DNA of 64,000 nucleotides from Candidatus Oxydemutatoraceae bacterium (GTDB lineage: Bacteria; Pseudomonadota; Gammaproteobacteria; Poriferisulfidales; Oxydemutatoraceae), in assembly GCA_965218975.1 (NCBI GenBank), contig OZ244717.1, positions 234,205-298,204 of the forward strand. The letters are read 5' to 3'. Shown here one piece after another: positions 14,664 to 60,012 of this stretch. The notes below the pieces were generated by a model, which worked only from the letters and a program-made list of their open reading frames with translations, did not search any database and was not told the DNA's origin. Every line of letters starts with the position of its first letter. Positions within the stretch are counted from its first letter, which is position 1. The position numbers and the translations under genes were made by a program.

Positions 14664-14679
14664 ACCCATTTATAGACTC

Positions 14680-18024: not shown

Positions 18025-18199
18025 ATCCCAGCCGGCGCGATATTCCTTACAGCGGTTCGCTACCGCCTCAGATTGATTCCTAGCGCGAAATAAGTTTACC
18101 GACACTGTACAGTTTTCGGTTTGTTTGGTTTACGGACGACTCATCTGCGGACCCTTTGTCATCAAGCAGTAGCTGACCCATCCCAAGGAGCCGAAAATG

Positions 18200-41702: not shown

Positions 41703-41771
41703 ACACGTATAAAACAGTTGTAAAATGGTTAATGGTCTTTAATAGGACAATCCGTAGTTTAATGAAATAAC

Positions 41772-44094: not shown

Positions 44095-44404
44095 AAAGAA
44101 TTTGCTGCCAAGCCAAGCAAGGTTTTGGATACTTTTAGTGCGGCCGCTAAGAAAGCTGTTCCCACTGTTGTTCGCCGTTAAGCACGAGAAAAAAATAAAA
44201 ATTTTCCAGTATTGGAGTTGAAGAATAGTGGAGAGGGAAGGGGTCGAACCCCGGACCCCGTGAAGGATCAATGGTTTTCAAGGCCATCGTTTCTTGACTT
44301 CGTAGGTTTTGGCTCATAAGCGATTGCCCATGAGTGATTGAGCCAGTGCCCTCAGGATTCTCAGGGGCACTACATTTATAGTGTTGCTTGCAACGCTCCC
44401 GTGC

Positions 44405-46420
44405 TCAGTTTCCTCCGGGGCGCGACTTGCTCGGAAGCGGGAACGGAGCTTCGTCCCATTTCAAACCTACGCTACGGTAGGTCCTGTTGACGTCCGCACT
44501 CGCGCCGGATCCGCCACCCTGTCCCGCTTGATAGACCCGGTCGAGATTCAGTAGAACGCCGCCGCTTCGCTCCAGCCCGTACACCGTGGCGCGCTTGCTC
44601 TGCGGCTGTGCGATACGCGCCAGTACCAGCTCGCGCAGGATGCGATTGGCCGCCATACGGCGCGCACCCAACACCTAGTTCCATCCGAGGTGCGAATAAA
44701 TCTGCGCGAACGCCTCGTGCACCCCAAGCGTCAGACGCGTTTCCTCACGGCATTTAGCCAGATCCGCCGATGCCTCTTGCACGGCGCTTTGCCGCGGTCA
44801 TGCAAGGCGCTGAGCCCAGTGCGGCGATAACGCTGGCGCCAGCGGTACAAAGTACTGCGACCGACCTTGAATACGTTCGGGAGTTATAACCTCCCAAAAT
44901 AATAGGGCAGTATATTTCTGTTGAAGCTTAGAATGCTCATGAGCCTCCATTATTGAAGTATACGATGCCACCCTAAATGGGATTTTTGAAGCGCTTCGAG
45001 AGAAGCGTTCGACAGTAACATTCGGGGATCGGTGTTTTCTGTCCGTTGCCGACATGAGGGCGGTGCGGGGTGAGACGCGCCCGGAAAACCAATTGGTTTT
45101 CAGCGGTGAACGACCCGACAAGGACGTCGGGGCTGGGGCTTGTTGACAGAACCCAGTCGCGTCATGGACGACAGGCACTTTACCGACAATCCGGCACAAT
45201 CCGCCGACAATCCGGCACAATCCGCCGACAATTCGCACAATCCACCACCAAACTACAAAATGGTTTCATAACCGGTCATTGAATGCTTCCGTATCGGTAA
45301 ATAGCAGGTCTTCTGCATGATCGATACAATCTTCTTGGACGGTGCGGCTGAAGCGCTTGATGTGCGCGTTCATTTTCGGACACTTGGGATAGGTCAGCCA
45401 CTGCTCAATCACGGGCGATTCCCGGATGAGCCGGGCAAACTGTCCTTGAAACTCACTACCGCCGTCCGTCAAGATATATTTTACCGGTGGCGGTAGCACC
45501 GCCAGGGTCAAGCGCAGAAATGCGGCAGCACTGCGGCTGTTACAGCAGTTGGTTGCCACTGCCGTTGCCATGCGGGTATAGACATCAATGGCCGTTAAGA
45601 CGGTGCGGCGCATCCCGTGCTGATAACGCACAATTGTATCTAGGGCGATGCAATGCTCCGGATACTGTGCTTTGAAGTCTTTCGGCTTGTGTGCCCTGCA
45701 ACGGCGCTTAAACGGTCGTTTTGTTTGTCCTTTGGCATTCGTGCGCTGCGGAACACGGCGCATTTTATCCGGCGCATCCGCGGTCAGGCGCGCAATCGTG
45801 CGGACACTCGGGCAGGGTGAGACGCGCCCGGAAAACCGATCGGTTTTCAGCGGCGAACGACCCGACAAGGACGTCGGGGCTAGGGCTTGTTGACAGAACC
45901 AAGTCTCGTCATGGGTGAGACGCGCCCGGAAAACCAATTGGTTTTCAGCGGCGAACGACCCGACAAGGACGTCGGGGCTGGGGCTTGTTGACAGAACCCA
46001 GTCGCGTCATGGACGACAGGCACTTTGCCGACAATCCGGCACAATCCGCCGACAATCCGGCAACAAGCGCAAAACGGTTTCACACTGAATCGGTTGGCTA
46101 GGTCCGTCGGCGCCTCTTGCGCGGCGCTCTGGTGCGGCCATGCAAGGCGCTGAACCCAATGCGGCGATAGCGCTAGCGCCAACAGCACTAAAGTACTGCG
46201 ACCGACCTTAAATGCGTTCGGGAGTTACAACCCTCCTAAAATAATAGGGCAGCATATTTCTGTTGAAGTTTAGAGCGCTCATGAGCCTCCATTCTTGAAG
46301 CTAAATTGGCTCATATAGAAACCTTTGATGCGGTGGCCGATGTGTTGATATTGCATATCGGTCACCTTTTTGAGTTAAGCCGTGAGTCCCATACGTATCT
46401 GGCACTATACAGTGCCAAGC
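44405..46420 (-). mobile_element. Two abutting degenerate IS481-family copies in minus orientation. The first is a full-length but disrupted copy (44960-46420: left end at 46420, transposase remnants, two REP-unit insertions at 45060-45265 and 45820-46080, 3' inverted repeat at 44960-44990). The second is a 5'-truncated copy (44405-44955) containing the transposase N-terminal HTH region.
   Basis: 3' end: ...HRPHVGNGQKTPIPECYCRTLLSKRFKNPI, then GGTGGCATCGTATAC. Left end: GGCACTGTATAGTGCCAGATACGTATGGGACTCACGG (reverse complement of 46384-46420). HTH-like translation FKVGRSTLYRWRQRY and ARRMAANRILRELVLARIAQP in 44405-44900. Confidence 0.65.
45266..45937 (-). pseudogene. IS481-family transposase integrase-core (rve) remnant, truncated by REP-unit insertions.
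   Basis: LTAIDVYTRMATAVATNCC...ILTDGGSEFQGQFARLI...VQEDCIDHAEDLLFTDTEAFNDRL is the DDE/rve core of IS481-type transposases. The N-terminus reads through repeat sequence. Confidence 0.65.
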
Positions 46421-46557
46421 ACTAATTCCGAGTAGTGCGCAATAGAGTGGCATTATGCAAAGGATCATAGCTAAATCATTAGGGCCATACGAAAGTTATC
46501 TCATCGTCTTGTGTAGACATTAGTAAATGTTTTTGACATTAAAGTTGACCTTGCCAC

Positions 46558-47748
46558 TTATTTTTTACTTGAAGATGTACCGGATAGCTTGTTCAATGCT
46601 TTATCTATTAAGGCTATTGCCTCATCAATGTTTTGATCGGAAGTATTAAATCCAAGACTGAATCTGATTGACGACTCAGCCTCATCACTTGTCAACCCTA
46701 TGGCTTTGAGAACATGAGATGGCTCTTGAGTGCCCGAAGCGCATGCCGAACCGATTGATGCCGCAAGACGTGGTTGCAACACATTCAGGATATCATGTGC
46801 TGTAAACCCCTTGAATCCGATGTTGGCATTGCCCGGGTGTCTGTATTCGACAGGGGGGCCGCACAGCGTCATGGGCCATGACAACGCCAACAGTTTGTCG
46901 ACAAATCGGTCCCGGTGTCTGCACAATTGTTCACGCTTATTCCTTGCTTGATCAGAACATAAGTATTCTGCTGCCGCTCCCATTCCAACGCATAACGGTG
47001 TAGGCAAAGTTCCGGAACGCAGTCCGTTCTGTTGTCCGCCACCGTAGATCAGAGGTTCAATGCTTTCTTGTAAGTCACGACGGATATAGAGCGCGCCAAT
47101 TCCCTTGGGACCATATATTTTATGCCCTGAAAGACTCAACAGGTCGGTATCATTTGCAAAGTTTTGCATATCTATCGCAATAGGCGCCTGAGCGGCATCA
47201 CAATGAAAGATGGCGCCGGATTGTCTGATTAAGCCGGATAAATTCGCGATATCCTGTATGGTTCCTATCTCATTGTTTACCGCCATAATCGAGACGATCA
47301 GCACGTCATCAGTGAGGCTGCGTTCCAAGTCCGGCAGTAAGATGTGTCCGGATTCGTCAACCGGAAGCAATTCGACCTGAAAACCGAGCTGCTCGTTCAA
47401 TACGCGCCCGACGGCGAGCACACTCTTGTGCTCAATTGCGCTAAGAAGGATTTTTTTTCTTGCAGCGCCCTCTGCCGCCGCATGTTTTGCTAACCCTAGC
47501 AAAGCTAAATTGTTGGACTCGGTTGCCCCGGACGTGAACACGATTTCATCGGCATCGGCGGCGATCAAGCGGGCAACTTGCTGCGCCGCTTTTTCCACAG
47601 CGCGAAAACTTTCCCAACCAGGCGCATGATCTGCCGAATGCGGACTGGCATAGGATTCCGAGAAGTACGGACGCATTTCACGCAACACTCTGTCGGAAAC
47701 CGGCGTCGTTGCCTGATAGTCAAAATACAGATATTCTGATGCGTTCAT
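46558..47748 (-). CDS. sspA: Cysteine desulfurase (class V aminotransferase, NifS/IscS-like). Candidate SspA/DndA-type sulfur donor of the adjacent phosphorothioation module.
   Basis: PLP blocks LSLSGHKIYGPKGIGALYIR and TSGATESNNLAL. Active-site loop GSACASG. Start taken at MNASEYLYFDY (47748). Divergent from the DUF4007 gene. Confidence 0.7.
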   Translation of the reverse strand: MNASEYLYFDYQATTPVSDRVLREMRPYFSESYASPHSADHAPGWESFRAVEKAAQQVARLIAADADEIVFTSGATESNNLALLGLAKHAAAEGAARKKILLSAIEHKSVLAVGRVLNEQLGFQVELLPVDESGHILLPDLERSLTDDVLIVSIMAVNNEIGTIQDIANLSGLIRQSGAIFHCDAAQAPIAIDMQNFANDTDLLSLSGHKIYGPKGIGALYIRRDLQESIEPLIYGGGQQNGLRSGTLPTPLCVGMGAAAEYLCSDQARNKREQLCRHRDRFVDKLLALSWPMTLCGPPVEYRHPGNANIGFKGFTAHDILNVLQPRLAASIGSACASGTQEPSHVLKAIGLTSDEAESSIRFSLGFNTSDQNIDEAIALIDKALNKLSGTSSSKK

Positions 47749-47849
47749 CGGTAAGTCTTCAATCTTGAAATATCCTATAATACCAGAGACAGTCTTCAGG
47801 AATATAACCTTGAGACTATAATACATGTTCCGATAACAGGACGACGAAT

Positions 47850-48824
47850 ATGACACGACGCGGCCCCCTATGTAGACAGGATTACAAACCGCACTTTTTA
47901 GGACACGAAACATTTCCCCTGCGCTATGGGTGGCTGAAAAAAGTCTATGACCGTGTGTCCCGCACCGAGAGAAATAAAAACAACAAAGCCCTGTGTTGGG
48001 GTGATAACGCTATTGCCTTGTTTGGTGTCGGTAAAAATATGGTTGCGTCAATGCGCCATTGGTCAATTGCGGCGGGAATAATTGAAGAGCCTTTAGGCGC
48101 AAATAAGGTGATTACAACCAAGATTGGCCGACAACTGTTCGGCAACGGCGGCCTTGATCCTTACTTGGAGCACCAAACATCTCTATGGCTAATCCATTGG
48201 AAGCTGGCAACGGAGTGGAAAAAAAAGACCACTTGGTTTTGGGCTTTCAATCACTACTACGCCGTACAGTTTGAGCAGGATAAGTTTGTCAAAAGACTTG
48301 AGCGCCTGGCAAAACATCTCGGGTGGCCACATGCCGCACATAGGACCATCAAAAATGACGTTGTCTGTTTTATTCGAACCTATACGACTCATCCCCTTGC
48401 CTCAAAAACGGGATGCGATGATTTACTCGGGTCGCCCCTAGCAGAGCTAGGCCTCATAAAGCCGTTCTCTCGAAAGGGTGAGTTCAGATTTGTTCACGGC
48501 CCGAAATCAACCTTGGGCAAAGGCGCTTTTGTTTATGCTCTTCTTGAGTTTTGGTCAAATTTTTCTCCCGCTACTTCAACACTTTCGTTTGAGGCGATTA
48601 CCTACGAGCCCGGGTCGCCGGGACGCGCTTTTCTGCTTGATGAGAACGACGCGGCCGAGAGATTATCTGACATTGACGATATTACCGGCGGTGCGCTGCG
48701 GTGGTCGGAGACGGCAGGATTGAAGCAGGTCGTGCGGAACCCCGGCTTTGCGATAGATTCTGATTATGCTCTTCGGCTCATAAAAAATGATTATGACGAT
48801 TCTGCTTGCATGAAGGCAGCGTAG
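47850..48824 (+). CDS. sspB: DUF4007-like protein; candidate SspB of a single-strand DNA phosphorothioation system.
   Basis: N-terminal GHETFPLRYGWLKKVYD and the overall 324-aa size match my recollection of the DUF4007 family that defines SspB. It is first gene of an overlapping three-gene operon with a large P-loop ATPase and a PAPS-reductase-like protein. An HMM search is needed to confirm. Confidence 0.55.
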   Translation: MTRRGPLCRQDYKPHFLGHETFPLRYGWLKKVYDRVSRTERNKNNKALCWGDNAIALFGVGKNMVASMRHWSIAAGIIEEPLGANKVITTKIGRQLFGNGGLDPYLEHQTSLWLIHWKLATEWKKKTTWFWAFNHYYAVQFEQDKFVKRLERLAKHLGWPHAAHRTIKNDVVCFIRTYTTHPLASKTGCDDLLGSPLAELGLIKPFSRKGEFRFVHGPKSTLGKGAFVYALLEFWSNFSPATSTLSFEAITYEPGSPGRAFLLDENDAAERLSDIDDITGGALRWSETAGLKQVVRNPGFAIDSDYALRLIKNDYDDSACMKAA

Positions 48825-51800
48825 TGGCACTAATTGATCAAATTCATATCGCGCGGCGTTTCCAAAAATCAATCCGCATTGATGCCGATTTCGGCGAACG
48901 CGATGCGCTGCACGGATTTATATGCCCTCGGTCATCGGGGAATACTCTGCTATCCATGGCCCGGCACGTGTCGGAGACCAACCAAGGCGCTTTTACTTGG
49001 ACCGGTCCGTACGGCAGCGGAAAATCTAGTCTTATCGTTGCTTTAAGCGCATTGCTCGGCGGTAATCCGCATTTGCGAGAACAAGCCGCCGCGATTTTTG
49101 GCCGAACGCTTACTAATGCGATACGAGGAATGCTTCCGGCAGGGATGAAGGGTTGGCGGGTAGTGCCGGTGATAGGGAGGCGAGATGACCCTGTTGATGT
49201 TATCGGACGCACCTTAGAGACAACGGGGCTTGTCGCTCGCCGGCCTCGCGGCGGCTGGACCGAAGATCTTCTTATTACCAATTTGATGGAAGGCGCGACA
49301 AACAAGGTTTACGGCGGGTTGATCTTATTCGTTGACGAGATGGGAAAATTCCTTGAGGCGGCCGCACAAGACGAGGTGGATATTTATATTTTCCAGCAAC
49401 TTGCCGAAACCGCCTCGCGAAGCAACGGGCGACTCCTCGTCATTGGTATATTGCACCAGGCGTTTGAAGAATATGCGCACCGCTTGTCTTACGAAATGCG
49501 CGATGAGTGGGCCAAGATACAAGGACGCTTCATTGATCTTCCGGTTAACACGACCGGCGAAGAACAAATTGACCTTATTTCCCGCGCAATCGGAAACAAC
49601 CGCCGTGCCGGTAAACCGAGCGCGCCATCTGTAACCGTGGCACAGTCGGTATATCGCGGTCGCACCGGCGATGCTCGGCAATTAGCCCGGATGCTGGAAA
49701 ATTGCCGGCCGTTGCATCCTGTTGTCGCGTGTTTGCTCGGGCCGATATCGCGCCGGCGCTTTGGCCAAAACCAACGCAGTATATTTGGCTTTCTCAATTC
49801 AGCCGAACCTCACGGTTTTCAGGATTATCTGCGCACCGCAAACGGAAACAGTCGCTACGGGCCCGAAAAGCTTTGGGATTATTTGCAGACAAATCTCGAG
49901 CCGTCCATTCTCGCCTCGCCGGACAGTCATCGATGGGCATTTGCGGCGGAAGCCATAGAGCGCTGTGAGTCTGTCGGGGGAGATATCTTCCATGTCAATT
50001 TATTAAAAACGATCGCGGTTATCGATCTTTTTAAGGAACGATCGGGACTCGTAGCCGGTTTCGATCTGCTTAAATCATGTTTTCCCGGTATCACGGCAAA
50101 ATCTTTAAAGCAAGGTCTAAAACGGCTGGACGATTGGTCGTTGACCGTATTCAAAAAATTTCAGGATGCATACGCCGTATTTGCCGGCAGCGACTTTGAT
50201 ATTGACCGGGCTGTCGGCAAGGCATTGGAGGAAATTGACGAAATTGATTTTGCCGCACTGAAATCGTTGGCGGGGCTTCAGCCGATTCTTGCCAAGCGCC
50301 ACTATTACGAAACCGGAGCAATGCGCTGGTTTGACGTAGATATCACTTCGGCGTGTGATGTTGCGGAATCCGTAGCTCGGTTCGAAACGAAAAACGATGT
50401 GATCGGTCAGTTCCTGTCGGTAATCCCGACAAAAGGAGAAGATGAAGATACGGTTAAAAAATTGTGCCGCGACGCAGCAAAGTCGCACGGTCAATGGGGC
50501 ATCATCGTCGGGTTTTCCGAGTACTCCCGGGCTGTTGTTGCCCTCGCGCGCGAGCTGCTGGCGACGGATAAAGTAAATAACGAATCTCCCGAGTTGGCGG
50601 GCGATACCGTTGCGCGCCGCGAAGTGTCCGCCCGTCTTGCTGAGTTGCAAGCCCTGCTTGAGCGCGAGCTGAATAAGTCTTTTGACCGAGCCGAATGGTA
50701 TCGCAAACATTGCGTTCCCAAGCCGTATCGCCGAGCCGATTTGAATAATCTGGTTTCTAAGCTTGCCGATAAGCGCTTTGATCAGTGCCCCAAGATTCGT
50801 AACGAACTTTTAAATAGACAAAAACCTTCCGGCAGCGCCGCCGGCGCGCGGAATGCCTTGTTACGTTGTATGGTCCGGAACGAGGGCAAGCCTCGCCTCG
50901 GAATAGAGGGCTACCCTGCTGAAGGCGGTTTGTTCGCATCTATACTCGAGACGACAGGCCTGTATTCCGAAGCGCGTGCAGGAAAATGGCATTTTACGGC
51001 ACCACCCCAAGGCAAGACTGACAAGTGCAGGATATTTCCTATGTGGAATGCGGCTGTCCGACACATCAAAAAAAATAATCAGCGTCCCGTGCCGGTATCG
51101 GAACTCTACGACAAGATTTGGTCTCAACCGCCCTACGGGGTCAAGGCGGGATTGGTGCCCGTTTTATCCGTTGCATTTATATTGTCGCAGCGTAACAACG
51201 TAGCGGTATATCGCGAGAGTATTTTTCGTGCCCGTTTTGACGATATTGACATGGAATATATGGTCAAGAACGCTGCGGCCATACAGTTGCGCTGGATGAG
51301 GCTCAACAGTACGTCGCGCCGCTTATTGTCCGATATGACCGAGGTCGTGCGCGACTTGAACAAGAACAACAAACTGCTTCATCCGGAGCCGATTGACGTG
51401 GCGCGCGGTTTGGTTGCAATTTACGAACGATTGCCTCAGTGGGCTAAGCGCACGATGAGGCTCTCGGCAAACGCGATCAGAGTGCGCGATATTTTTAAGC
51501 ACGCATACGACCCTAATAAATTCTTGTTTGACGATATTCCTACATTGTCGGAAGGGAAGAGGACGGGCCCTTCAGGCGCAAAAGCTATTCGGAAAATTGT
51601 TTCCTTGGTAAATGAAGGCTTGCAAGAGCTTGTGCAGGCCTATCCTTTGATGCTCCGTCGTATGCGCGACGTTATGTTGGCAGAATTGCAGGTTCCGAAC
51701 GCATCAAGGCAATCTCTTGCGGAATTAAGAGACCGAGCTACCAATATAAAAGAGTTGGCGGGTGATTTCCGTCTGGATGCTTTTATCGGGAGAATCGCCC

Positions 51801-52225
51801 GATACGACGGCAGCGACGCCGGATTTGAGGGGATTGCCAGTCTTGCAGCGAATAAACCGCCTCGCGACTGGGTTGATCCGGATTTGAACCGCGCCGCAAT
51901 AGAGATTGCGGACATGGCGCAGAAGTTTTTAAGAGCCGAAACTTTTACCCGTATCCGCGGACGGCCTGAGAAACGCCAGGCCATGGCTGTCTTTATCGGC
52001 GTGAAGGGGCGACCCGTGCCTTTGCTGGAAGAGTTTGATGTCATTGACTCCGACCGAGCGGCAATTGATGATCTTATTGAGCATGTCTCTGCCGTGCTTG
52101 AGACGGTTGATACAAATAGCCGGAGTATCGTATTGGCCGCATTGGCCGAACTTGGCGCCCGGTATATGCAAAAGCCGGACCAAGCCAAGCGAAAAAGGAA
52201 GAACGGAAAACCTACCGATGCCTGA
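48806..52225 (+). CDS. sspC: Large P-loop NTPase (1139 aa); candidate SspC.
   Basis: Walker A WTGPYGSGKSSLIVAL. Walker B LILFVDEMGKFLE. The start overlaps the DUF4007 gene and the end overlaps the PP-loop gene. No transmembrane segments. Confidence 0.55.
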   Translation: MHEGSVVALIDQIHIARRFQKSIRIDADFGERDALHGFICPRSSGNTLLSMARHVSETNQGAFTWTGPYGSGKSSLIVALSALLGGNPHLREQAAAIFGRTLTNAIRGMLPAGMKGWRVVPVIGRRDDPVDVIGRTLETTGLVARRPRGGWTEDLLITNLMEGATNKVYGGLILFVDEMGKFLEAAAQDEVDIYIFQQLAETASRSNGRLLVIGILHQAFEEYAHRLSYEMRDEWAKIQGRFIDLPVNTTGEEQIDLISRAIGNNRRAGKPSAPSVTVAQSVYRGRTGDARQLARMLENCRPLHPVVACLLGPISRRRFGQNQRSIFGFLNSAEPHGFQDYLRTANGNSRYGPEKLWDYLQTNLEPSILASPDSHRWAFAAEAIERCESVGGDIFHVNLLKTIAVIDLFKERSGLVAGFDLLKSCFPGITAKSLKQGLKRLDDWSLTVFKKFQDAYAVFAGSDFDIDRAVGKALEEIDEIDFAALKSLAGLQPILAKRHYYETGAMRWFDVDITSACDVAESVARFETKNDVIGQFLSVIPTKGEDEDTVKKLCRDAAKSHGQWGIIVGFSEYSRAVVALARELLATDKVNNESPELAGDTVARREVSARLAELQALLERELNKSFDRAEWYRKHCVPKPYRRADLNNLVSKLADKRFDQCPKIRNELLNRQKPSGSAAGARNALLRCMVRNEGKPRLGIEGYPAEGGLFASILETTGLYSEARAGKWHFTAPPQGKTDKCRIFPMWNAAVRHIKKNNQRPVPVSELYDKIWSQPPYGVKAGLVPVLSVAFILSQRNNVAVYRESIFRARFDDIDMEYMVKNAAAIQLRWMRLNSTSRRLLSDMTEVVRDLNKNNKLLHPEPIDVARGLVAIYERLPQWAKRTMRLSANAIRVRDIFKHAYDPNKFLFDDIPTLSEGKRTGPSGAKAIRKIVSLVNEGLQELVQAYPLMLRRMRDVMLAELQVPNASRQSLAELRDRATNIKELAGDFRLDAFIGRIARYDGSDAGFEGIASLAANKPPRDWVDPDLNRAAIEIADMAQKFLRAETFTRIRGRPEKRQAMAVFIGVKGRPVPLLEEFDVIDSDRAAIDDLIEHVSAVLETVDTNSRSIVLAALAELGARYMQKPDQAKRKRKNGKPTDA

Positions 52226-53048
52226 AAAGCATGTTTTAGGATTATCCGGCGGCAGAGACAGCGCTGCGTTGGCTGTTTACATGCGGCAACATTATCCCGA
52301 GCTTGAGTTGGAATATTTCTTTACCGATACCGGCAAAGAATTACCCGAAGTTTATGAGTATCTAGGACGGTTGGAAGGGTTTCTCGGGCAGCCGATTTTG
52401 CGCCTTAATCCGGATCGCGATTTTGACTTCTGGTTAAAGCAATATGACGGTTTCCTTCCTTCTCCTCAAACGAGATGGTGCACGAGACAATTAAAACTTC
52501 GTCCGTTTGAAGACTGGATTCGACCGATGCTTGAAAACGGAACAAAAGTGTATAGTTACGTCGCTATTCGCGGGGATGAGGCGTATAGAAAAGGGTATTC
52601 TCCTAAATACGAGAATTTGAAAATCAAATTGCCTTTTAAGGAGGCAGGTATAGACAAAGCCGGGGTGCTTGAAATTCTTGACGGTGCCGGGCTCGGCTTG
52701 CCCGAATATTACTCATGGCGGACTAGGAGCGGGTGCACGTTTTGTTTCTTTCAGCAGAAAATTGAGTGGGTGCGGCTGAAGGAGCGGCACCCGGACGCAT
52801 TTGAAGAAGCCAAGGCATACGAGAAAGACGCCGTTAACCACGGTTCCCCTTTCACCTGGAGTCAAGGTGAGTCCTTAGAAGAGCTGTCACAGCCGGAGCG
52901 TATTGACCAGATCAAAGAAGAACATGCGCGACGTCTTCTGCGCTTGAGGGGTAAAGTGCAGAATAATCCTTTGCGTTCCGATAGCGAGCCCTTGGATATT
53001 GACGATTTATACGGCAAGGCAAAAGTTTGCTTGGCATGCCATAAGTAG
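52218..53048 (+). CDS. sspD: PAPS-reductase / PP-loop ATP pyrophosphatase family protein; candidate SspD (DndC-like).
   Basis: PP-loop motif VLGLSGGRDSAALAV immediately after the start at MPEKHV (52218, 8-nt overlap with the previous gene). C-terminal CxxC motif CLACHK. Confidence 0.65.
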   Translation: MPEKHVLGLSGGRDSAALAVYMRQHYPELELEYFFTDTGKELPEVYEYLGRLEGFLGQPILRLNPDRDFDFWLKQYDGFLPSPQTRWCTRQLKLRPFEDWIRPMLENGTKVYSYVAIRGDEAYRKGYSPKYENLKIKLPFKEAGIDKAGVLEILDGAGLGLPEYYSWRTRSGCTFCFFQQKIEWVRLKERHPDAFEEAKAYEKDAVNHGSPFTWSQGESLEELSQPERIDQIKEEHARRLLRLRGKVQNNPLRSDSEPLDIDDLYGKAKVCLACHK

Positions 53049-53191
53049 ACTTTGACTGCTTTTCGGAAATAGTTGGTAGGCACTTCGGCAACGGCTTACT
53101 TGGGGATGTTCTTGCGGGGAGGTGTGCTTGAATCTTGAAACCGAACGGATTGTCGCATACGGACGTGCGGGCACACCCACAGCGATGCAAC

Positions 53192-53662
53192 TTAGTGCTT
53201 TCTCAGCATCTTGTCGATTGCCTCCGACAGATTCCAGATCGGTTCCGCACCACCGTCCTTCAGCATCTCCAAAACATGCGGCAGCCCGGCCGCGGCAAGG
53301 CCGTTTGCGAGCGTCATCATCTTTCGCGGTTCTGACACAATATCTACGTTACCTGATTTGCTGATCGCGATTAGCATGAGCGTGTGAATACGCCACGGAT
53401 CGCTGATGAATATCGACCCGTCAACTATCTTTTTTATCTTCTTCCGCGTACTGTGTTTCGCAGTGTCAGCAGGTTTTAAGCCTAGTCGTGCCGCGATGCA
53501 GACGGACAGAAACCAGAGATCAACCATGCGTGGAAACGGGCTTTGGTCTATTACGGTGTCGGCTTCGGCGCTTCGGCAATATCGCGTGAACGCCTCGTGG
53601 AATTCCACTGGCACGTTGATGTCAATGGTTTGAAAAGGATTGAAATATCGGTCTGCCATCAT
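53192..53662 (-). CDS. Hypothetical 156-aa protein; last gene of the four-gene operon convergent with sspBCD.
   Basis: The ORF starts 7 nt after the stop of the SMC-like gene. No recognisable family. Confidence 0.5.
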   Translation of the reverse strand: MMADRYFNPFQTIDINVPVEFHEAFTRYCRSAEADTVIDQSPFPRMVDLWFLSVCIAARLGLKPADTAKHSTRKKIKKIVDGSIFISDPWRIHTLMLIAISKSGNVDIVSEPRKMMTLANGLAAAGLPHVLEMLKDGGAEPIWNLSEAIDKMLRKH

Positions 53663-53668
53663 CGCCTC

Positions 53669-55810
53669 CTATGACGCCACGCCTGGTTCGACTCGCGGGT
53701 CTGGGCGGCGCCGGCAGAGCTGGCATTCGTCCTTGTGATCGCATTCGCAGCGGAGGACCCTGCGTTCTTCAATGCCGGGATCGTTCACGAGCATTTTCGG
53801 GTAGTGTGCGGAGTTCGTCAGGGTAAATACCACTCCGGCGGACTGATCGATAATTTCCTCGCAGCCCGTAATTTCATCGTGTGTCAGGAACAGAATCAGT
53901 TGCGCGCTTTCACGTACGGATGTGTGCAGGACCGAGCGCTTCACAAAGCCACTCGTCATGCCGAGCGGTGTGTCAATCACGTTCGGCGCTTCAACCTCGC
54001 TCACTTTCGTTAGGGCGAGGATGAATGCGAGCGTCAGCGCGCGGCGAGATGCGCCGTTTAGGTCGCGGTCGGGGTTGAGTGTCCTGTCATTCGGGCCGTA
54101 GGCGATGATGTCAAATTCCCGGCTGATCTCAGCGCGCTGGATAATCGCGCCCTGTTTCGGGTCCGCGCCGATCATTTCCAGGAATATGTTGTTCATTAAA
54201 TCGCTGACCTTCCGCAATTCCTTGTTGGTGATTCGCTCATACGCGCTTTGCAGCACCTTCCTGACGTCTTGCGTGACTTCAAGTTCGGCCCGAACCCGCG
54301 CTCCACTTTTCTGTTTGCGCAAGAGGCGGTCGCGCTCGGTTTCTAACTTTATGCGATCGCGGTGCAGCTCGGTGAGCTGGGTTTTGATGGCCGACTGTTC
54401 CGACAGGTAGTGGTCACGCCGGTCATTGAACTGGCGGCGCGCTTTGCGCAGACCCTGGATATCCGTGTTGGGAAGCGAGTCGAGTTGCAATTCCAGCGCA
54501 CGCAACTTCCGACCTTCTTCGTTGCGCAGGGTTCCGAGATCGTCGCGCCGCTCGGCGACTTTCTTGTAGTCCTCAAGCCATCCACTTGACCCGGCGTCAC
54601 CGCTGGTCTGTAAGGGCTTCGCGTAGTACAACAGTTCGGCGACGACCTCCTGGATTTCTTCGGGATGCCGGCTGTCGTTGATCAGCTTCTGAATACGTGC
54701 GCGGCGCTTGTCGCCGCCGGGACCGTCGGGTTCCAACGTTTCGCCGCAGATGCAGATTTCCGCTGAGAGACATCCCTCAAGCACCGGGATCGTTATGTAC
54801 GGGATCTTGCCCTGCTCGCGCAGCTCTTCGAGTTTGTCGAATGCCTGACCGAGCATCGGCGCAAGCAGGTCGGTTGCAACGGACCGGCTGCGAAACAGTG
54901 CTGAGTGTTCCTCGTTCGCCACCTTGACCCGTCTGTCGAGCTGACGGATCATGTTCTTCGCATATTCGAGGTCCTTGCGCAGCTTTTCCTTGTCACCTTT
55001 CTGGAGGGCCGCGTCAATCTCGCGGTCTCTCTTATTGACGTATTCATCGAACGTCCTGAACTGTTGTTTGGCGTCCGCAAGAGCGTCTTCGGATTTCTTG
55101 CAGTCGTTCTCTAGCGTTTCGAGGCGCGAGGCGGTCTTGTTCAGCTCACTGCCGGACCCGAGTTGCTTTGCTTGCTTATTCACTTCCGCCGCCGATTTGC
55201 CCACATGCTTGATCGCGTCGTTGATTACTTCGAGTCCCAGAAGAGAACATATCGCCTGTTCCACGCGGTCGCGTTTGGTGGATAGGATAACATCCGCTTC
55301 GATGAAGCTTAGCGCGCGGTCACCATCTGTGAAAAAGACCTCCCTTAGCTGCGGTGGCAGGTTTTCGTTGATGAACGCTTCTGGGGTGCTCATGGGACTT
55401 GCGCCGGTATCGTTCAGCTGAAGCAGGTCCACGGTCGAGGCGGAACGACGGGCCTGGCTGTCTATATCCTCGAACGCCGAGCGTACGAGGCGATAGTGCC
55501 GGCGGGTTTCGCGCCATTCCTCGCCGACTCGTCGGTGGGTCGTCAGCTCGAATTCAACCACGGCCATGATCGGGACCCGCTTCCCATCGCTCGCGACCCA
55601 GTCAATGGGATGCAGCCGAAATCCCTCGCCCTTGTCGGGCAGCGCCCCGTCGCCGTAAAGTGCCCATTGAAGGCCGTGCAGGATCGTGGTTTTCCCGGAT
55701 TCGTTCGCGGCGCGGATAACGGTTAGTTTTTTGTCGGGGTCGGTGGAGAATTCCAGCTCCAGATCGCGGAGCAGCCGGAAGTTCTTAAATTCGGCGCGGA
55801 GCAGCTTCAT
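53669..55810 (-). CDS. SMC/RecF/DndD-like AAA ATPase with a long central coiled-coil and Cys clusters.
   Basis: N-terminal Walker A IRAANESGKTTILHGLQWALYG. C-terminal signature/D-loop region RRALTLAFILAL...LILFLTHDE. About 400 aa of heptad-rich sequence between them. Central CLSAEICICGETLEPDGPGG and C-terminal CECDHKDECQLC Cys clusters. Start taken at MKLLRAEF (55810), which overlaps the upstream small-ORF stop as ATGA. Confidence 0.65.
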   Translation of the reverse strand: MKLLRAEFKNFRLLRDLELEFSTDPDKKLTVIRAANESGKTTILHGLQWALYGDGALPDKGEGFRLHPIDWVASDGKRVPIMAVVEFELTTHRRVGEEWRETRRHYRLVRSAFEDIDSQARRSASTVDLLQLNDTGASPMSTPEAFINENLPPQLREVFFTDGDRALSFIEADVILSTKRDRVEQAICSLLGLEVINDAIKHVGKSAAEVNKQAKQLGSGSELNKTASRLETLENDCKKSEDALADAKQQFRTFDEYVNKRDREIDAALQKGDKEKLRKDLEYAKNMIRQLDRRVKVANEEHSALFRSRSVATDLLAPMLGQAFDKLEELREQGKIPYITIPVLEGCLSAEICICGETLEPDGPGGDKRRARIQKLINDSRHPEEIQEVVAELLYYAKPLQTSGDAGSSGWLEDYKKVAERRDDLGTLRNEEGRKLRALELQLDSLPNTDIQGLRKARRQFNDRRDHYLSEQSAIKTQLTELHRDRIKLETERDRLLRKQKSGARVRAELEVTQDVRKVLQSAYERITNKELRKVSDLMNNIFLEMIGADPKQGAIIQRAEISREFDIIAYGPNDRTLNPDRDLNGASRRALTLAFILALTKVSEVEAPNVIDTPLGMTSGFVKRSVLHTSVRESAQLILFLTHDEITGCEEIIDQSAGVVFTLTNSAHYPKMLVNDPGIEERRVLRCECDHKDECQLCRRRPDPRVEPGVAS

Positions 55811-56051
55811 GAGTCCGGTTTCTCTGTTCCCGCGTCTTGACCGCGTTGAGACGCGAGGAACCGTGCAGCGGCATTGCACTTGTTGTTTATCTTCTGTTGT
55901 ATGTTTGTCGCTGAGATGCGATGCTCTCGTTCATATTCCCGAATATCGTTAATCACTTTGAAGATCTCTTTCCTATAGCCCTCACACCGTTCCTCTATCC
56001 CGGTGCACTCCTCAAGGATGATCGAGATTATCTTTTTGTCGTTTAGCGGCA
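55807..56051 (-). CDS. Small hypothetical protein (81 aa), translationally coupled between the helicase and the SMC-like gene.
   Basis: Strong RBS GGAGAGGGAGGacaaATG on the minus strand. The TGA stop overlaps the ATG of the next gene. The protein is charged and helical, with no family. Confidence 0.5.
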
Positions 56052-56068
56052 TTTGTCCTCCCTCTCCT

Positions 56069-58237
56069 TTACAAGTACGCGGCGTCAACCATTCTGTCAA
56101 TCGTCGCCAGCGGCCCGTCCGTCCGGCCCGCGTTTTTCGCTAGCCGGGCAAACTCCTGCGCCCGATGCAATTCTGAACGTACAAGGCTACGTGCATCAGG
56201 GTCAAGCTCCTCTTCCATCTTCGGCGGCAAAGCTAGTAAATCGTGAATAATGCTGTGCGTTTTGCCAATATTACTACAAGTGCGTAAAAGGCGTCCGCGC
56301 CGTTGCACCCATTGCCGTTCGACCGTCGTGCTCGCGAGAATGAACGCCTTGCATATCTGCGGGATATTCACTCCTTCGTCGAGCACGCGCTTTGCCGTCA
56401 GCATCTGAATTTCCCCGTCCTGGAAGGACTTGATGATCCGCTTAGTCTGCTCGCGGTTCGCCGTCTCTTCGGCGGTGAGCTGGTGGAATAAGATATTCCG
56501 GTCGCGCAGCAACCGATTCACGTCGTCGAGCTGATCCGGTCCCTTGTCGGAGGTGTAAACGAGCGTGTGCCGCAGGTTGCCGGTATCCTCTTTATCAAGC
56601 AGAGTCCTCAGCATCGAAACCTTGCCGGAGGCGGTTTCCAGCAACGCGCGCCGATCCCGCAAAAGCTTGGCGAGGTACTCGTCCGGCTTATCTCCGTCGC
56701 TGCGCCAAGCATTCCGCTTGATTTTGCCCGTCAGCTCGAACCAGTCGTCCATTTCGGTGTCTGTCAGGGACACGGGATGGACGTAGTAATCGTATTCGAC
56801 AAGACAGCGGCCGATGGCCTCTTCTAGTGCGAAACGGAAAACAATGGGTCCGAAGAATCCGAATAGCGCTTTTGTCCCTTCCTCGTCATACTGACGTATC
56901 GGTGTGGCCGAGAGACCGAGACGATGTTCAAAGAATTCCGGCGGATTCCTGACAAACGAGGCGCGGCCTAGATTGTGAGCTTCATCAGCAATGAGTAGGC
57001 GGTCGCAATCAAACTTCTCAACTGCGACGAGAAATTCTGGAGTGCACAACGTATCGTGACTGACGACGATGACTTCAACATCCGACAGATTGGTACGCAG
57101 TCGCCGTTTCAGTTTTTGCAGCTCGCGCGCACGCTTCGCCGCACCGCCAGCTGTCGTGAGATTGACCGGCTTTATCCCGAACGGAACGATTTCATTGCAC
57201 CACTGTTCAATCAATGGTACATAGGGCGCGGCGACGACGATGAATAGCGGTCTGCGCTCTTCGTAGAGACGGTGTGCGCTGATCATTGAAGTGATTGTCT
57301 TCCCTGAGCCGGTCGCCATTTCCAGAATGCCTCGATACCGGGTCTCGCACCATGCATTGACTGCCTTTCCCTCGTGTTTGAATGGCCCGTCTTCGTATCG
57401 AAGCCAGCTTGGTATTACGAATTCCGTCTTCGGGACCGGAACGGGCTCGTACAATGCGGGCTCTTCCGCAATGCCGGTTGCGCGCACGTAGAGAGCACGC
57501 AGATCATCTTCGGTCGGAGGCGATTCGGAGCCGTAGGTGCGCAAGAGACGCTGTCTGATGGCATCTGGCATCGCGATAACGATACAGTTGTCGTCCTTGT
57601 TTTCCCACAGTCGGCGGAACTCGTAATGAAGCTTATCGGTGATGTAATGTTGATTCGAGTCCTGCCATGACCTTGATATGGTGGTCTGTTCGATGTTCTT
57701 CCGAATGCCTGCAAAGGTTACGTTGCTCGAACCGTGCGCCGCGACGACATCGCTACCGTTCTCGAAGAGCCAAACCTTGGGATGAAAGAGAGCATCTTTC
57801 ATCAGGGCGGTCCTGATTTCGATTCGGTGCTTCCGAACCAGCCACGTAAGGCATTTTAGCGTGTAGCGTTGTAGTAGGTCTTCGGTGACGATCAGCTCTT
57901 CTAGAATCTTGTCGGCGACCTCTTCGGCTGACTTCAACCCGTCCTCAATTGCGGCTTTATCCTCGGCACGGAGCAGGGGACTCACAACAAGCCGGAAACT
58001 ATTTTGCGACCCTGCGATGTAGGTCGCTAGACCCGGGGCAAGCGAAGCTAGTACTTCGCTTGAAAAGAAACCGGTCATGCAATCTACGCTATCCGCTGCC
58101 CGGAATCCCGGAATCAACACTTCCTCGGCAAATGGGTCTGCCGGCAGCATGTAAAGCGGACGGGCCGACCCCAGCGACCGAAGCGTTTGTGTCACCACAG
58201 TCGCAGTTTTGTCCTGTATTGCCGTATCATGCACCAC
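56069..58237 (-). CDS. Fusion of a PLD-family (HKD) nuclease domain and an SF2 DEAD/DEAH-box helicase; a restriction-type effector.
   Basis: HKD motif FHPKVWLFENGSDVVAAHGSSNVT at about aa 150. Helicase motif I LEMATGSGKTITS, motif II LLIADEAHNLG, motif III SATPIRQ, motif VI QWVQRRGRLLR. 722 aa. Confidence 0.7.
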   Translation of the reverse strand: MVHDTAIQDKTATVVTQTLRSLGSARPLYMLPADPFAEEVLIPGFRAADSVDCMTGFFSSEVLASLAPGLATYIAGSQNSFRLVVSPLLRAEDKAAIEDGLKSAEEVADKILEELIVTEDLLQRYTLKCLTWLVRKHRIEIRTALMKDALFHPKVWLFENGSDVVAAHGSSNVTFAGIRKNIEQTTISRSWQDSNQHYITDKLHYEFRRLWENKDDNCIVIAMPDAIRQRLLRTYGSESPPTEDDLRALYVRATGIAEEPALYEPVPVPKTEFVIPSWLRYEDGPFKHEGKAVNAWCETRYRGILEMATGSGKTITSMISAHRLYEERRPLFIVVAAPYVPLIEQWCNEIVPFGIKPVNLTTAGGAAKRARELQKLKRRLRTNLSDVEVIVVSHDTLCTPEFLVAVEKFDCDRLLIADEAHNLGRASFVRNPPEFFEHRLGLSATPIRQYDEEGTKALFGFFGPIVFRFALEEAIGRCLVEYDYYVHPVSLTDTEMDDWFELTGKIKRNAWRSDGDKPDEYLAKLLRDRRALLETASGKVSMLRTLLDKEDTGNLRHTLVYTSDKGPDQLDDVNRLLRDRNILFHQLTAEETANREQTKRIIKSFQDGEIQMLTAKRVLDEGVNIPQICKAFILASTTVERQWVQRRGRLLRTCSNIGKTHSIIHDLLALPPKMEEELDPDARSLVRSELHRAQEFARLAKNAGRTDGPLATIDRMVDAAYL

Positions 58238-58479
58238 ACGTTCCTCCTGTTTTTCTAGTTGCCTAGAGATTCCGACCCGGGCCGATACAATGGGAAATTA
58301 ACCACGATGCCGTTGCAGTGCCGGTCCAAGAATTTCGCGACAACACGCCAGATCATCGGGTTGCCGACGGTTCGAATCCGGTGGCGAGGTATGTTGGTTC
58401 CTTGCGCACTCCTTCGTTGATGGTCTACAGAGAAGCGAACACCACATCTCTCGGGCTTTGAATACAGCAAGTTCCTTCA

Positions 58480-58545
58480 CTCCTCTTGAAACTTACCTTT
58501 TCGAGTCGTATCGTGAGTCCAATATGTATCCGGCACTATACATTA
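58480..58545 (-). mobile_element. Solo left-end fragment of the IS481-family element.
   Basis: CGTGAGTCCAATATGTATCCGGCACTATACA matches the 46384-46420 terminus (CGTGAGTCCCATACGTATCTGGCACTATACAGTGCC) in the same orientation. It lies immediately upstream of the dsrA promoter region. Confidence 0.55.
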
Positions 58546-58749
58546 CATTGTTATCCGGTAGTAGGCAATAAGATGTACATGCCATTAGTACGGAGCACAG
58601 AAATTAATCGGCGCCCTTATCTACATTGGGATATAAAGCTAGACTCAAAATATATTAGAATGGCAGTTTGTTTGAGAGGTTGATAGTCATAAAATGTGCA
58701 ACTCTCGAAAGTTTGTGAAACGATGATTAACACGGAGGAGGTATAAGTA

Positions 58750-60012
58750 ATGGCGAATAAACATCATGATACGCCCATGCTTGACGAACTGGAGAATGGC
58801 CCTTGGCCAAGTTTTATCTCCGGAATTAAACGGTTGAGAGATGAGCATCCTGATCAACGTGTCAGCGGTGTTGCCGACGATTTACTTGGGCAACTTGAAC
58901 ACTCCTATGAAACACGTAAAGGTTATTGGAAGGGTGGTACGGTTAGCGTATTTAGGTATGGCAGCGGTATCATTCCGCGGTTTTCGGAAGTAGGTCATGC
59001 TTTCCCAAAATCCAAAGAATTTCATACTCTGCGTGTACAACCTCCTGCAGGAAATTATTACACAACAGACATGTTGCGTAACCTTGCCGAAAGCTGGGAG
59101 AAATGGGGTTCGGGGCTAGTAACTTTTCATGGTCAGACCGGCAATATTATGTTTATCGGCGCAAATACTGAAAACACCCAACACTTTTTTGATGAAATCA
59201 ATGATTATGGTTGGGACTTGGGCGGTGCGGGCCCTTGTGTGCGGACGGGTCAGTCGTGTGTGGGTTCGGCGCGTTGCGAGCAGTCCAACATTGATGAAAT
59301 GAGAATTCATCGCACTTTGCTGAATAACTTTACCGATGATGTGCATCGTCCTTCTCTCCCGTATAAATTCAAGTTCAAAGTTTCAGGTTGCAGCAATGAT
59401 TGTATGAACTCGATTGAGCGTGCCGATTTCTCGATCATCGGAACTTGGTGCGATGATATGAAAGTAGATCAGAACGAGGTAAAAGCTTTCCTTAAGAAGA
59501 AAGGGCATCAGTATATGATTGACAACGTGATTACACGCTGCCCGACAAAAGCTTTGTCGCTGAGCGATGATGACGAACTAAAAGTTGATAACCGAAACTG
59601 CGTGCGATGTATGCACTGCTTGAACGTTATGCCGAAAGCTTTGTCGCCGGGCGATGATAAGGGTATTACCGTCCTGATCGGAGGAAAGCGCACGCTTAAA
59701 ATCGGCGACATGATGGGAACGGTGATTATGCCGTTTATGAAGCTGAAAACAGAGGAAGATTACGAGAAGCTTGTTGAGCTTGCTGAGGAGACGATTGATT
59801 TCTGGGCTGAAAACGGTTTGGAACATGAGCGTTGCGGCGAGATGATCGAACGAATCGGTTTGGTTAACTTCCTAGAGGGTATCGGTGTTGAAGTTGATCC
59901 GAATATGATTACCGACCCGCGTACCAGTTCCTATGTGCGCACCGACGGCTGGGATGAAGAAGCGATCAAATGGCTACAGCGTAAAGCCGAGAATAAGCAA
60001 GCAGTTGCTTAG
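58750..60012 (+). CDS. dsrA: Dissimilatory sulfite reductase alpha subunit (reverse/oxidative type in this gene context).
   Basis: RBS GGAGGAGGtataagtaATG. Siroheme/4Fe-4S Cys motifs CVRTGQSCVGSARC and CSNDC. Ferredoxin-like insert CPTKAL...CVRCMHC. 420 aa, followed by dsrB, dsrEFH and dsrC. Confidence 0.85.
   Translation: MANKHHDTPMLDELENGPWPSFISGIKRLRDEHPDQRVSGVADDLLGQLEHSYETRKGYWKGGTVSVFRYGSGIIPRFSEVGHAFPKSKEFHTLRVQPPAGNYYTTDMLRNLAESWEKWGSGLVTFHGQTGNIMFIGANTENTQHFFDEINDYGWDLGGAGPCVRTGQSCVGSARCEQSNIDEMRIHRTLLNNFTDDVHRPSLPYKFKFKVSGCSNDCMNSIERADFSIIGTWCDDMKVDQNEVKAFLKKKGHQYMIDNVITRCPTKALSLSDDDELKVDNRNCVRCMHCLNVMPKALSPGDDKGITVLIGGKRTLKIGDMMGTVIMPFMKLKTEEDYEKLVELAEETIDFWAENGLEHERCGEMIERIGLVNFLEGIGVEVDPNMITDPRTSSYVRTDGWDEEAIKWLQRKAENKQAVA

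Follow-up and report, generated by a model that had tools for sequence, protein, structure and literature searches.

IS481-like left-end remnants at both borders of a defence island upstream of dsrA: probable scars of separate events

In the stretch of DNA analysed in this work (64 kb, hereafter the window), an SspABCD-PbeABCD defence island lies upstream of a reverse-type dsr operon, and the same insertion sequence (IS) terminus is present at both of its borders. This arrangement raises two questions: whether the IS moved the island to the dsrA upstream region or only left scars at its edges, and whether the control region of the dsr operon was affected.

A repeated terminus at both edges of the island

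The two edges carry a direct repeat of 48 nt (46364-46411 and 58495-58542), 81% identical (9 differences in 48 positions), with none expected by chance. Its 30-nt core matched at 27 positions, and no match was obtained in 100 shuffles. Both copies terminate in ACA (TGT on the minus strand), at 46411 and 58542 respectively, and inward the similarity runs to 46364 and 58495. The original prediction had located the repeat at 46384-46420 and 58507-58545; the repeat was real, though these coordinates were a few bases off. Both copies are on the minus strand and have, as predicted, the same orientation.

The left copy (minus strand, TGTATAGTGCCAGATACGTATGGGACTCAC...) is the left end, IRL plus leader, of a longer element named here copy C, and stops 8 nt short of the remnant transposase-leader ATG at 46355. 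The right copy (minus strand, TGTATAGTGCCGGATACATATTGGACTCAC...) is a solo left-end stump of the same IS481-like family: its outer end is oriented toward dsrA, its inner, broken end is 24 nt upstream of the start of a small ribbon-helix-helix (RHH) gene, and no IS sequence continues leftward of it. When folded, the 48 nt were no more structured than expected by chance (z = +0.8 to +1.0). Between the two copies lie 12,083 nt containing SspA, B, C and D, four Pbe genes (PbeD, C, B and A in map order) and the RHH gene, which places the ends at the two edges of the Ssp-Pbe island, where they had been anticipated.

Ends, family and decay of the IS481-like element

IS-derived sequence was found at eight places in the 64 kb. 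Four left ends (46411, 58542 and 3085 on the minus strand; 7122 on the plus strand) and six right ends were located, each set with a common boundary. One outer boundary was shared by the left ends at 46411, 58542 and 3085; the left end at 7122 was diverged in its outermost 8 nt, which blurs its own boundary. The left ends at 3085 and 7122, together with the six right ends, confirmed the repeat as an element terminus, and the two island-border sequences as left ends of an IS481-like element. Left and right ends together make up an imperfect inverted repeat (TGTA-N3-TGCCA...ATGGGA) that starts with TGT (IRL, TGTATAGTGCCAGATACGTATGGGAC; IRR, TGTACGATGCCACCCTAAATGGGAT). The right end was not detected by similarity to the left end; it was recognised through a fragment of the source genome (P0250), in which the “extension” segments encode the transposase C-terminus.

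The transposase remnant in the window (an rve fragment) scored 75.3 bits against the IS481 profile (NF033577) vs. 36.8 against IS3, and the near full-length transposase of a related IS in an outgroup locus (L166; 50% amino-acid identity, ~1090 bp, IRR TGTATGATGCCAGGACATATTGGAC) scored 155.7 and 91.7 bits respectively, both IS481 scores being below the NCBI curated cut-off of 224 bits. Plasmid homologues with 37% identity are annotated as IS481 family. Judged by these scores, IS481 is clearly the best-matching family for the element, though below the curated cut-off.

Every copy found is dead. No intact transposase reading frame was present in any of the copies in the window, with stops and frameshifts throughout, and the eight gene products of the source contig that matched the transposase were all fragments of 100-157 aa. 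The outgroup IS has a 5-bp duplication (CTAAG) on both sides; no target-site duplication was found at the ends in the window for any plausible pairing, including the flanks of copy C (TTGAAG vs. GTGCC). Copy C (44959-46411, minus strand, 1453 bp) has both ends (IRR at 44959, IRL at 46411), a transposase gene broken by stops, frameshifts and 97-98-nt repeat units (45815-46012 and 45065-45167), and is nested against an older IS fragment (44754-44958). Fragment A (41213-41699, plus strand), an internally deleted derivative, lacks a left end, and its IRR ends at 41699. Fragment A and copy C are in inverted orientation, and between their inward-facing right ends lies a Type II restriction-modification (RM) pair (41772-44094, plus strand; 33-35% GC), encoding an N4/N6 methylase with HEAT repeats and a CfrBI-like endonuclease.

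Composition of the SspABCD-PbeABCD island

Homologues of SspA-D and PbeA-D were all present and in the expected order (PADLOC, Pfam, NCBIfam). The SspABCD phosphorothioate-modification module (46558-53048), with near full-length PADLOC matches as well as Pfam and NCBIfam support, comprises SspA (46558-47913, minus strand; PADLOC 4e-127), SspB (47850-48824, plus; 1e-100), SspC (48806-52225, plus; E=0) and SspD (52035-53048, plus; 4e-136), the true start of SspD probably being later. The PbeABCD-type module (53192-58237, minus strand; PADLOC and TIGR04095, 364 bits) comprises PbeA, with an HKD nuclease and an SF2 helicase (56069-58237, minus; PADLOC 1e-190), a small ORF in the PbeB position (55807-56100, minus), PbeC, an ABC ATPase (53669-55879, minus; 1e-53), and a 156-aa protein assigned to PbeD by position (53192-53662, minus).

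The same four Pbe genes occur in the same order in five related loci (L081-L085; 75-78% DNA identity), the whole island order recurs in these, in L099, L112 and others, and the convergent Pbe and Ssp architecture is found in many metagenome contigs. The IS of the window was detected in none of the 165 other loci (2.4 Mb). On the left side, the 146 nt between the IS end and the SspA stop codon had no homology to any fetched locus, and the genes beyond SspA differ from locus to locus in 16 related islands, which makes SspA a natural module edge. Regarding an origin from a tRNA or att site, ARAGORN found no tRNA and Rfam gave no match. Putative tRNA-like pieces were observed at about 44200-44290 and 58350-58395.

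The Pbe operon is headed by the small RHH-type ORF (58255-58470, minus strand; 43% identity over 30 aa, E 1e-7). Homology to the RHH_1 genes that precede PbeA in relatives covers the C-terminal half, with DNA homology reaching 58357; the N-terminal half has diverged, and the ORF may be a pseudogene. Relatives have a conserved region upstream of RHH that the window lacks.

The dsrA upstream region

dsrA (58750-60012, plus strand; TIGR02064, 616 bits) is the first gene of a reverse-type dsrABEFHCM... operon, as also indicated by the downstream gene order. Its RBS (GGAGGAGG, 58734-58741) is 192 nt from the stump end at 58542, close to the ~200 bp that had been predicted for a diverged solo copy of the terminus, which the 48-nt stump indeed is; 208 nt separate the stump end from the dsrA ATG.

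For comparison with relatives, DsrA was used to fetch 80 genome loci, complemented with an exact-protein look-up and a homologue search. The best DsrA match was 87% identical (in genome_contigs and in a set of 5.8 billion proteins), and no close relative showing an empty site was found. A tblastn search of all ORFs of the window against the fetched loci revealed no shared upstream genes, and blastn revealed no shared DNA in the intergenic region. In most relatives, the upstream neighbourhood consists of divergent TauD-family, Cas6-like and DsrC-like genes. Of 74 related dsrA loci, 58 have the TauD-family gene; the window does not, and the stump therefore marks a break in synteny as well as the edge of the island.

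A motif conserved across related loci lies between the stump and dsrA (58618-58645, plus strand). It consists of a palindrome of the TATC-N8-GATA type (TATCTACATTGGGATA, 58618-58633) followed by CTAGACT (58639-58645). Of the 74 related loci, 40 have TATC-N8-GATA in the 320 nt preceding dsrA, whereas the entire 1.43 Mb of these loci contains only 57 occurrences; the window contains two. The palindrome is a candidate for a widely conserved, apparently undescribed dsr operator. The conserved promoter-proximal motif was thus retained here, although the palindrome and CTAGACT are spaced by 21 nt here and by 71 nt in the majority of relatives; the dsr control region consequently departs from the common type, possibly through remodelling. 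A sigma-70 scan of 58100-58800 scored no better than shuffled sequence, with no strong consensus between the scar and dsrA.

The island and its IS scars had been proposed to sit in the regulatory region of the dsr operon. The most conserved motif is intact and downstream of the scar, so the proposal holds in a narrower form: the scar abuts the promoter-proximal region without interrupting it.

Origin of the scars

The two ends are probably independent scars of separate insertion/deletion events, and not parts of a unit that moved the island. A divergent IS481-like element would once have spread through the genome, probably that of a sulfur-oxidising gammaproteobacterium with a small genome, leaving the copies that are now dead. 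The end at 46411 belongs to copy C, which is decayed but retains its two ends (44959-46411), and the end at 58542 would be what remained after a deletion that began inside the IS at nucleotide 49, just before the transposase leader, and took the rest of the IS and the intervening DNA up to 24 nt upstream of the RHH-PbeABCD operon. The scars would lie at the borders of horizontally acquired, dispensable DNA, namely the IS-flanked RM module and the SspABCD-PbeABCD island, and the stump would be the breakpoint at which the upstream genes of relatives (divergent TauD-family, Cas6-like and DsrC-like) were lost. The break would have halted about 75 nt before the palindrome and CTAGACT motif; stopping short of it, it most likely left dsr transcription to start at the native promoter, downstream of the scar.

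The stump could have been exapted, either as the promoter/leader of RHH-PbeABCD or as part of a hybrid outward promoter to dsrA, which would explain the retention of a 48-nt left end; this we regard as unlikely. The break coincides with the expected start of the transposase leader, the RHH start codon, with its own RBS, comes 24 nt later, the native RHH upstream region of relatives is gone, and a promoter-like site (TTGAAA-17-TATCGT, 58486-58514, plus strand) spans the junction. In Bordetella pertussis, neighbouring genes are driven by an inward and an outward promoter located near the left end of IS481 (PMC6161684). However, the site across the junction matches at 9 of 12 positions and shuffles of the region contain on average 1.2 such sites; inspection by eye gave no convincing sigma-70 match in the inward direction; and the outward promoter of B. 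pertussis IS481 overlies the transposase RBS, downstream of the inward promoter (PMC6161684), so that the part of the IS matching it is missing from the stump. It is improbable that the stump is a retained control element driving RHH-PbeABCD and perhaps perturbing dsr expression outward. If it were, expression of the defence island would be linked to the control region of a core sulfur-oxidation operon.

The ends had also been said to delimit the 12-kb island, which is correct as geometry but not mechanistically: no target duplication was found and the stump is not a copy of its partner. A mechanistic bracket would be a degraded composite transposon, in which the island moved to the dsrA upstream region between two complete direct IS copies and the right-hand IS then lost all but its first 48 nt. 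The same orientation of the ends and their exact placement at the two island edges fit such a composite too, and count to that extent against independent scars. The neighbouring RM module is itself IS-flanked in a composite-like layout, so the IS481-like family plausibly mobilised cargo. Against this, the outer ends (IRR 44959 and IRL 58542) are flanked by TTGAAG and TTACAT, which is no duplication, and the Ssp-Pbe island lacks the two usable outer ends and flanking target duplication that define a composite. The native sequence upstream of the RHH gene was also lost in the right-hand deletion, so that a deletion endpoint, and not an IS right end, forms the cargo edge; on one side the island adjoins the left end of copy C, whereas on the other it adjoins the inner, broken side of the stump. 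The stump did not derive from the same copy as C, as it agrees at variable positions with the copies at 3085 and 7122 and not with copy C, and relatives of the island occur without the IS. With these observations, a composite origin is doubtful.

Insertion of the island into a single IS copy upstream of dsrA, splitting it in two, would likewise leave the island between IS-derived sequences of the same orientation, but it is highly improbable: both sides have the same first 48 nt of the IS, whereas the two halves of a split element would complement each other, the two copies show 9 mismatches in these 48 nt, and the left element has a complete left end of its own. A chance similarity with no mobile element involved, which has only the shortness of the right-hand copy in its favour, is practically negligible given the absence of matches in 100 shuffles, an outer boundary of the stump that coincides with the left ends at 46411 and 3085, and its match to the IRR of the independent outgroup relative (L166) at 21 of 26 positions.

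Significance and comparison with known systems

Defence islands are commonly bordered by IS remnants; the finding is ordinary in this respect and the evidence points to passive scars in a genome that contains many dead IS copies. For annotation, both ends of a previously uncatalogued IS481-like lineage are now defined, about 17.5 kb between fba and dsrA can be described as accreted mobile and defence DNA, and the breakpoint at which the usual dsrA upstream neighbourhood was lost has been located. A by-product of the analysis, the palindrome that about half of 74 gammaproteobacterial loci carry upstream of dsrA, may be more useful, as a candidate operator for the poorly understood regulation of the reverse dsr operon.

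The element resembles the IS481 family (B. pertussis IS481 and the Klebsiella plasmid elements) in having a single rve/DDE transposase with IS481 as its best profile, imperfect terminal inverted repeats from TGT, a size of ~1.1 kb and numerous copies and remnants in a small genome, some of them upstream of operons; the intact-ended outgroup also has a short target duplication (5 bp). Unlike the members of the family, it scored 75 bits (155.7 in the outgroup) against a cut-off of 224, with ~37% identity to annotated members, all copies are dead and have no detectable target duplication in the window, and 97-98-nt structured tandem units are present inside the transposase gene.

As in composite transposons, cargo lies between two copies of one IS family, and fragment A and copy C flank the RM module in the classic inverted-IS layout; the Ssp-Pbe island differs in having a 48-nt stump as one of its “ISs”, no target duplication and an edge that is a deletion endpoint.

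The island itself is very similar to known SspABCD-PbeABCD islands, centred on a CxC ABC ATPase: all eight proteins match PADLOC profiles, the convergent arrangement of Pbe and Ssp is that of the metagenome contigs, and PbeA is an HKD-nuclease/SF2-helicase fusion, as in known systems (PMC10853773). Nothing notable differs: PbeD and SspD are not separated by a variable insert, and the RHH gene upstream of PbeA is diverged and without its own upstream region.

Finally, dsrA of Ca. Thiomargarita nelsonii contains a group I intron in which a MITE is located (PMC4853749). In the window, by comparison, the element precedes dsrA, leaves the coding sequence untouched and lies clear of the conserved control motif; in both cases, a core sulfur-oxidation locus lies amid mobile-element debris.

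Left ends of a decayed insertion sequence

A repeat search of the window revealed a direct repeat of 48 nt (81% identity) at 46364-46411 and 58495-58542, both copies of which began, on the minus strand, with TGTATAGTGCC. The second site differed from the 30-nt core, GTGAGTCCCATACGTATCTGGCACTATACA, at 3 positions, and no match to this core was found in 100 dinucleotide-preserving shuffles. The original prediction of a pair of IS left termini was thus right about both sites, its exact limits being out by a few bases on either side, and also about the roughly 200 bp to the dsrA RBS (58734-58741), which was 192 nt from 58542 (208 nt to the ATG at 58750). The right-hand copy was a solo left end (the “stump”, minus strand), and the left-hand copy belonged to a decayed element retaining both ends (copy C, 44959-46411, minus strand, 1453 bp).

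Self-comparison showed the repeat family at eight places: 2157-3085, 7122-8262, 10626-10826, 16154-16260, 18165-18430, 41213-41699 (fragment A, plus strand), 44754-46411 (copy C plus an older piece, fragment B, 44754-44958) and 58495-58542 (the stump). The left ends at 46411, 58542 and 3085, all on the minus strand, shared one outer boundary with unrelated flanks outside it; in a fourth, at 7122 (+), similarity ran from position 9 inward and the outermost 8 nt had diverged. About 56 nt inside every left end except the solo stump was a short conserved ORF (MQYQHIGHRIKGFY...), followed by remnants of a helix-turn-helix and rve (DDE) transposase, every one with stops and frameshifts; window copies of the ORF lay at 46355-46280 (-), 41207-41270 (+) and 3030-2960 (-). 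Apart from P0244, a transposase considered below, the matches in a set of 5.8 billion proteins were eight fragments of 100-157 aa, all from a single 2.08-Mb contig; neither its called proteins nor the window included an intact copy. One of these fragments, P0250, gave the native transposase C-terminus (...FNDRLWGYVAWYNLHRPHAGNEQQAPIRMLLPNASLEALQKSH). A tail of this type was encoded in the “extension” segments of the window copies, which then ended at a common boundary (...GGCATCGTACA), giving six right ends: 41699 (+), 44959 (-), 2157 (-), 16260 (+), ~18430 (+) and 10826 (+). The left and right terminal repeats (IRL, TGTATAGTGCCAGATACGTATGGGAC; IRR, TGTACGATGCCACCCTAAATGGGAT) formed an imperfect inverted repeat, with TGTA, TGCCA and ATGGGA common to both.

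Structured tandem units of 97-98 nt were present inside the remnants as arrays of up to 7 copies (7299-7990, 2263-2565 and 45815-46012) and as single units (41489-41595, 45065-45167 and 10691-10798). Their positions in the transposase gene were fixed at two sites, one after ...LMKPFC and one within the WYN..RPH motif. The units formed three hairpins with a terminal stem closing them (z about -2), and had no Rfam match. Elsewhere in the window, a 93-nt tandem duplication (6278-6462, two copies, 97% identical) lay within a gene for an FGE-sulfatase-domain protein (5416-6978), and an apparently intact IS1595-family transposase (9703-10560 (-); DDE_Tnp_IS1595 and zinc ribbon) represented a second IS type, possibly still active.

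The region upstream of dsrA

Eighty gammaproteobacterial dsrA loci (L001-L080), no close relative among them, were compared; 74 had enough upstream sequence for counts. A TauD-family gene was divergent from dsrA in 58 of the 74, its start lying 185-580 nt upstream in most, and beyond it were usually Cas6-like (PF09559) and DsrC-like genes, the trio occupying 0.2-2.7 kb upstream of dsrA (e.g. 7474-9762 in L002). None of these three genes was found anywhere in the 64-kb window. Of the 74 loci, 40 carried a palindrome, TATC-N8-GATA (typically TATC[CT]C-N4-G[GA]GATA), in the 320 nt preceding dsrA; Thioalkalivibrio denitrificans and Halochromatium glycolicum were among them, and its distance from dsrA across L001-L080 was about 100-300 nt. 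The pattern had just 57 matches in the 1.43 Mb spanned by these loci, and two in the window. Related loci often had CTAGACT exactly 71 nt past the palindrome, with a CCCCATGGAGGGG-like block in between. In the window, the palindrome (TATCTACATTGGGATA, 58618-58633) and CTAGACT (58639-58645) were 21 nt apart, versus 71 nt in relatives; in L001, the closest locus by DsrA, TAGACT also directly followed the palindrome. The palindrome is a candidate operator of reverse dsr operons, and no description of it was found in a literature search.

The conserved promoter-proximal motif has therefore been retained, with palindrome and CTAGACT both on the dsrA side of the stump. Ancestral synteny ends within the 75 nt separating palindrome from stump; the stump marks a genuine breakpoint upstream of dsr and lies clear of the motif, the only conserved one detected in this region. 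The proposal that IS scars lie in the regulatory region of dsr needs narrowing: they abut it and mark a break in synteny, with the conserved motif intact.

It is unlikely that the stump now serves as a promoter. Inward and outward promoters near the left end of Bordetella pertussis IS481 drive adjacent genes, but the outward one overlaps the transposase RBS (PMC6161684), a part that the stump lacks. A consensus promoter scan around the scar and dsrA gave nothing beyond chance; one match spanned the stump junction (TTGAAA-17-TATCGT, 58486-58514 (+), 9/12), and shuffles gave 1.2 such sites.

The closest DsrA relatives were from Ca. Oxydemutatoraceae and Ca. Porisulfidus MAGs with 1.6-2.1-Mb chromosomes. 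Together with an ankyrin-repeat protein (218-1096 (-)) and a SoeABC-like trio of molybdopterin, FeS and DmsC-type anchor proteins (11032-15609 (+)), this points to a sulfur oxidiser that lives in association with a host and has a small genome.

The defence island and its flanks

The phosphorothioate defence genes between the two left ends were SspA, SspB, SspC and SspD (46558-53048) and a PbeABCD-type module (53192-58237; in map order a 156-aa PbeD-position protein, PbeC, a small PbeB-position ORF and PbeA), with full-length PADLOC matches for all except the two small proteins. Just upstream of PbeA was a 71-aa ORF (58255-58470 (-)), whose C-terminal half was homologous to RHH_1 genes preceding PbeA in relatives. 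Its frame was open and its N-terminal half fitted relatives better in another frame (TINEG... vs. TLDEG...), suggesting compensating frameshifts and possible pseudogenisation; the RHH gene of L083, an island relative, was likewise decayed. Relatives of PbeA (~82% identity) and SspB (50-69%) lay in identically arranged islands on many metagenome contigs, where PbeA-B-C-D converged on SspD-C-B and SspA was divergent from SspB, with a variable insert between Pbe and Ssp in some and differing outer neighbours on both sides. The IS of the window was absent from all 165 other loci compared (2.4 Mb). The Ssp-Pbe island is a common self-standing unit with no intrinsic tie to the IS. GC content across the region was a mosaic: 33-35% in the neighbouring RM module, about 55% in IS copies, 48-54% in Ssp, 54-58% in Pbe and 44-50% in flanking genes.

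In IS orientation, the order was stump (IRL, first 48 nt only), RHH gene and Pbe, Ssp, and copy C (IRL to IRR), so the island adjoins copy C at its outer left end and the stump at its inner, broken side. It is unlikely that a degraded composite transposon carried the island. The flanks of its would-be ends (58542 and 44959), TTACAT and TTGAAG, differ, so there is no target duplication. Transposase acts at IS termini, not inside the element, and the inner break of the stump falls inside the IS, at nucleotide 49, where it looks like an ordinary deletion endpoint; consistent with deletion, a segment conserved in relatives immediately before the start of the RHH gene (cggcattggaaaa...tggtg.aaaactggtgg) was missing from the window. 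Stump and copy C differed at 9 of 48 positions, at several of which (e.g. CCGGATACATA vs. CCAGATACGTA) the 3085 and 7122 copies agreed with the stump; the stump is not a duplicate of the left end of copy C, and that the island split one pre-existing IS is scarcely credible. Given the geometry, the lack of duplication, the internal break and a stump unlike its partner, the ends probably do not “delimit” the island mechanistically, and bracket it without demonstrated mechanistic meaning. IS debris is so frequent (eight sites in 64 kb) that remnants flanking a block of dispensable DNA on both sides are no surprise.

A more convincing composite-like layout was that of a type II RM pair (41772-44094, 33-35% GC; HEAT-repeat N4/N6 methylase and CfrBI-like endonuclease) flanked by fragment A and copy C in inverted orientation, right ends inward (41213-46411), fragment A being without its own left end. 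The left end at 46411 would then bound an RM-carrying unit on its outer side just as much as it borders the Ssp island. Another transposase fragment (…LVLARIAQPQSKRATV…; ~44405-44720 (-)), by eye reminiscent of the IS4/IS1634 type, was wedged between the RM module and fragment B. A stretch at ~44200-44290 (-) looked like the 3' portion of a tRNA, with an anticodon arm, a long variable arm, a GGTTCGA T-loop and an acceptor, and a T-loop motif (GGTTCGAATCC) lay within the RHH gene at ~58350-58395 (+). Neither was reported by ARAGORN or Rfam, so these pieces may be chance or att-site relics.

Inferred history and relation to known insertion sequences

We propose that an IS481-like element entered the divergent intergenic region upstream of dsrA, left end towards dsrA, and that a later deletion would have run from within it leftwards to 24 nt upstream of the RHH-Pbe operon, taking the IS body and intervening DNA, plausibly including the TauD-family cluster. 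Other IS copies, the RM module and the IS4/IS1634-like fragment would have gathered separately on the SspA side, and all IS copies would finally have decayed. IS scars at the island are unremarkable in a genome with so many dead insertion sequences.

What is new here is limited to an uncatalogued IS481-like lineage. The predicted IS481-type identity of the left terminus was correct: the ends form an inverted repeat, the transposase remnants best match IS481, and an outgroup element of ~1090 bp in another locus (L166), lying between 5-bp duplications (CTAAG), had a right end (TGTATGATGCCAGGACATATTGGAC) identical to the stump at 21 of 26 positions. The short MQYQHIGHRIKGFY... ORF was common to the window IS and this 50%-identical outgroup (L166 2856-2960), and may be a leader peptide or small upstream gene of the IS lineage. 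The best-preserved transposase piece (45266-45812 (-)) scored 75 bits against the NCBIfam IS481 model and 37 against IS3, and its nearest annotated plasmid homologues (37% identity) were named “IS481 family transposase”. P0244, the only relative outside the genome of the window (50% identity), scored 155.7 and 91.7 bits respectively. Both IS481 scores lie under the curated cut-off of 224 bits, and the element is therefore best described as a putative divergent lineage of IS481-like insertion sequences.
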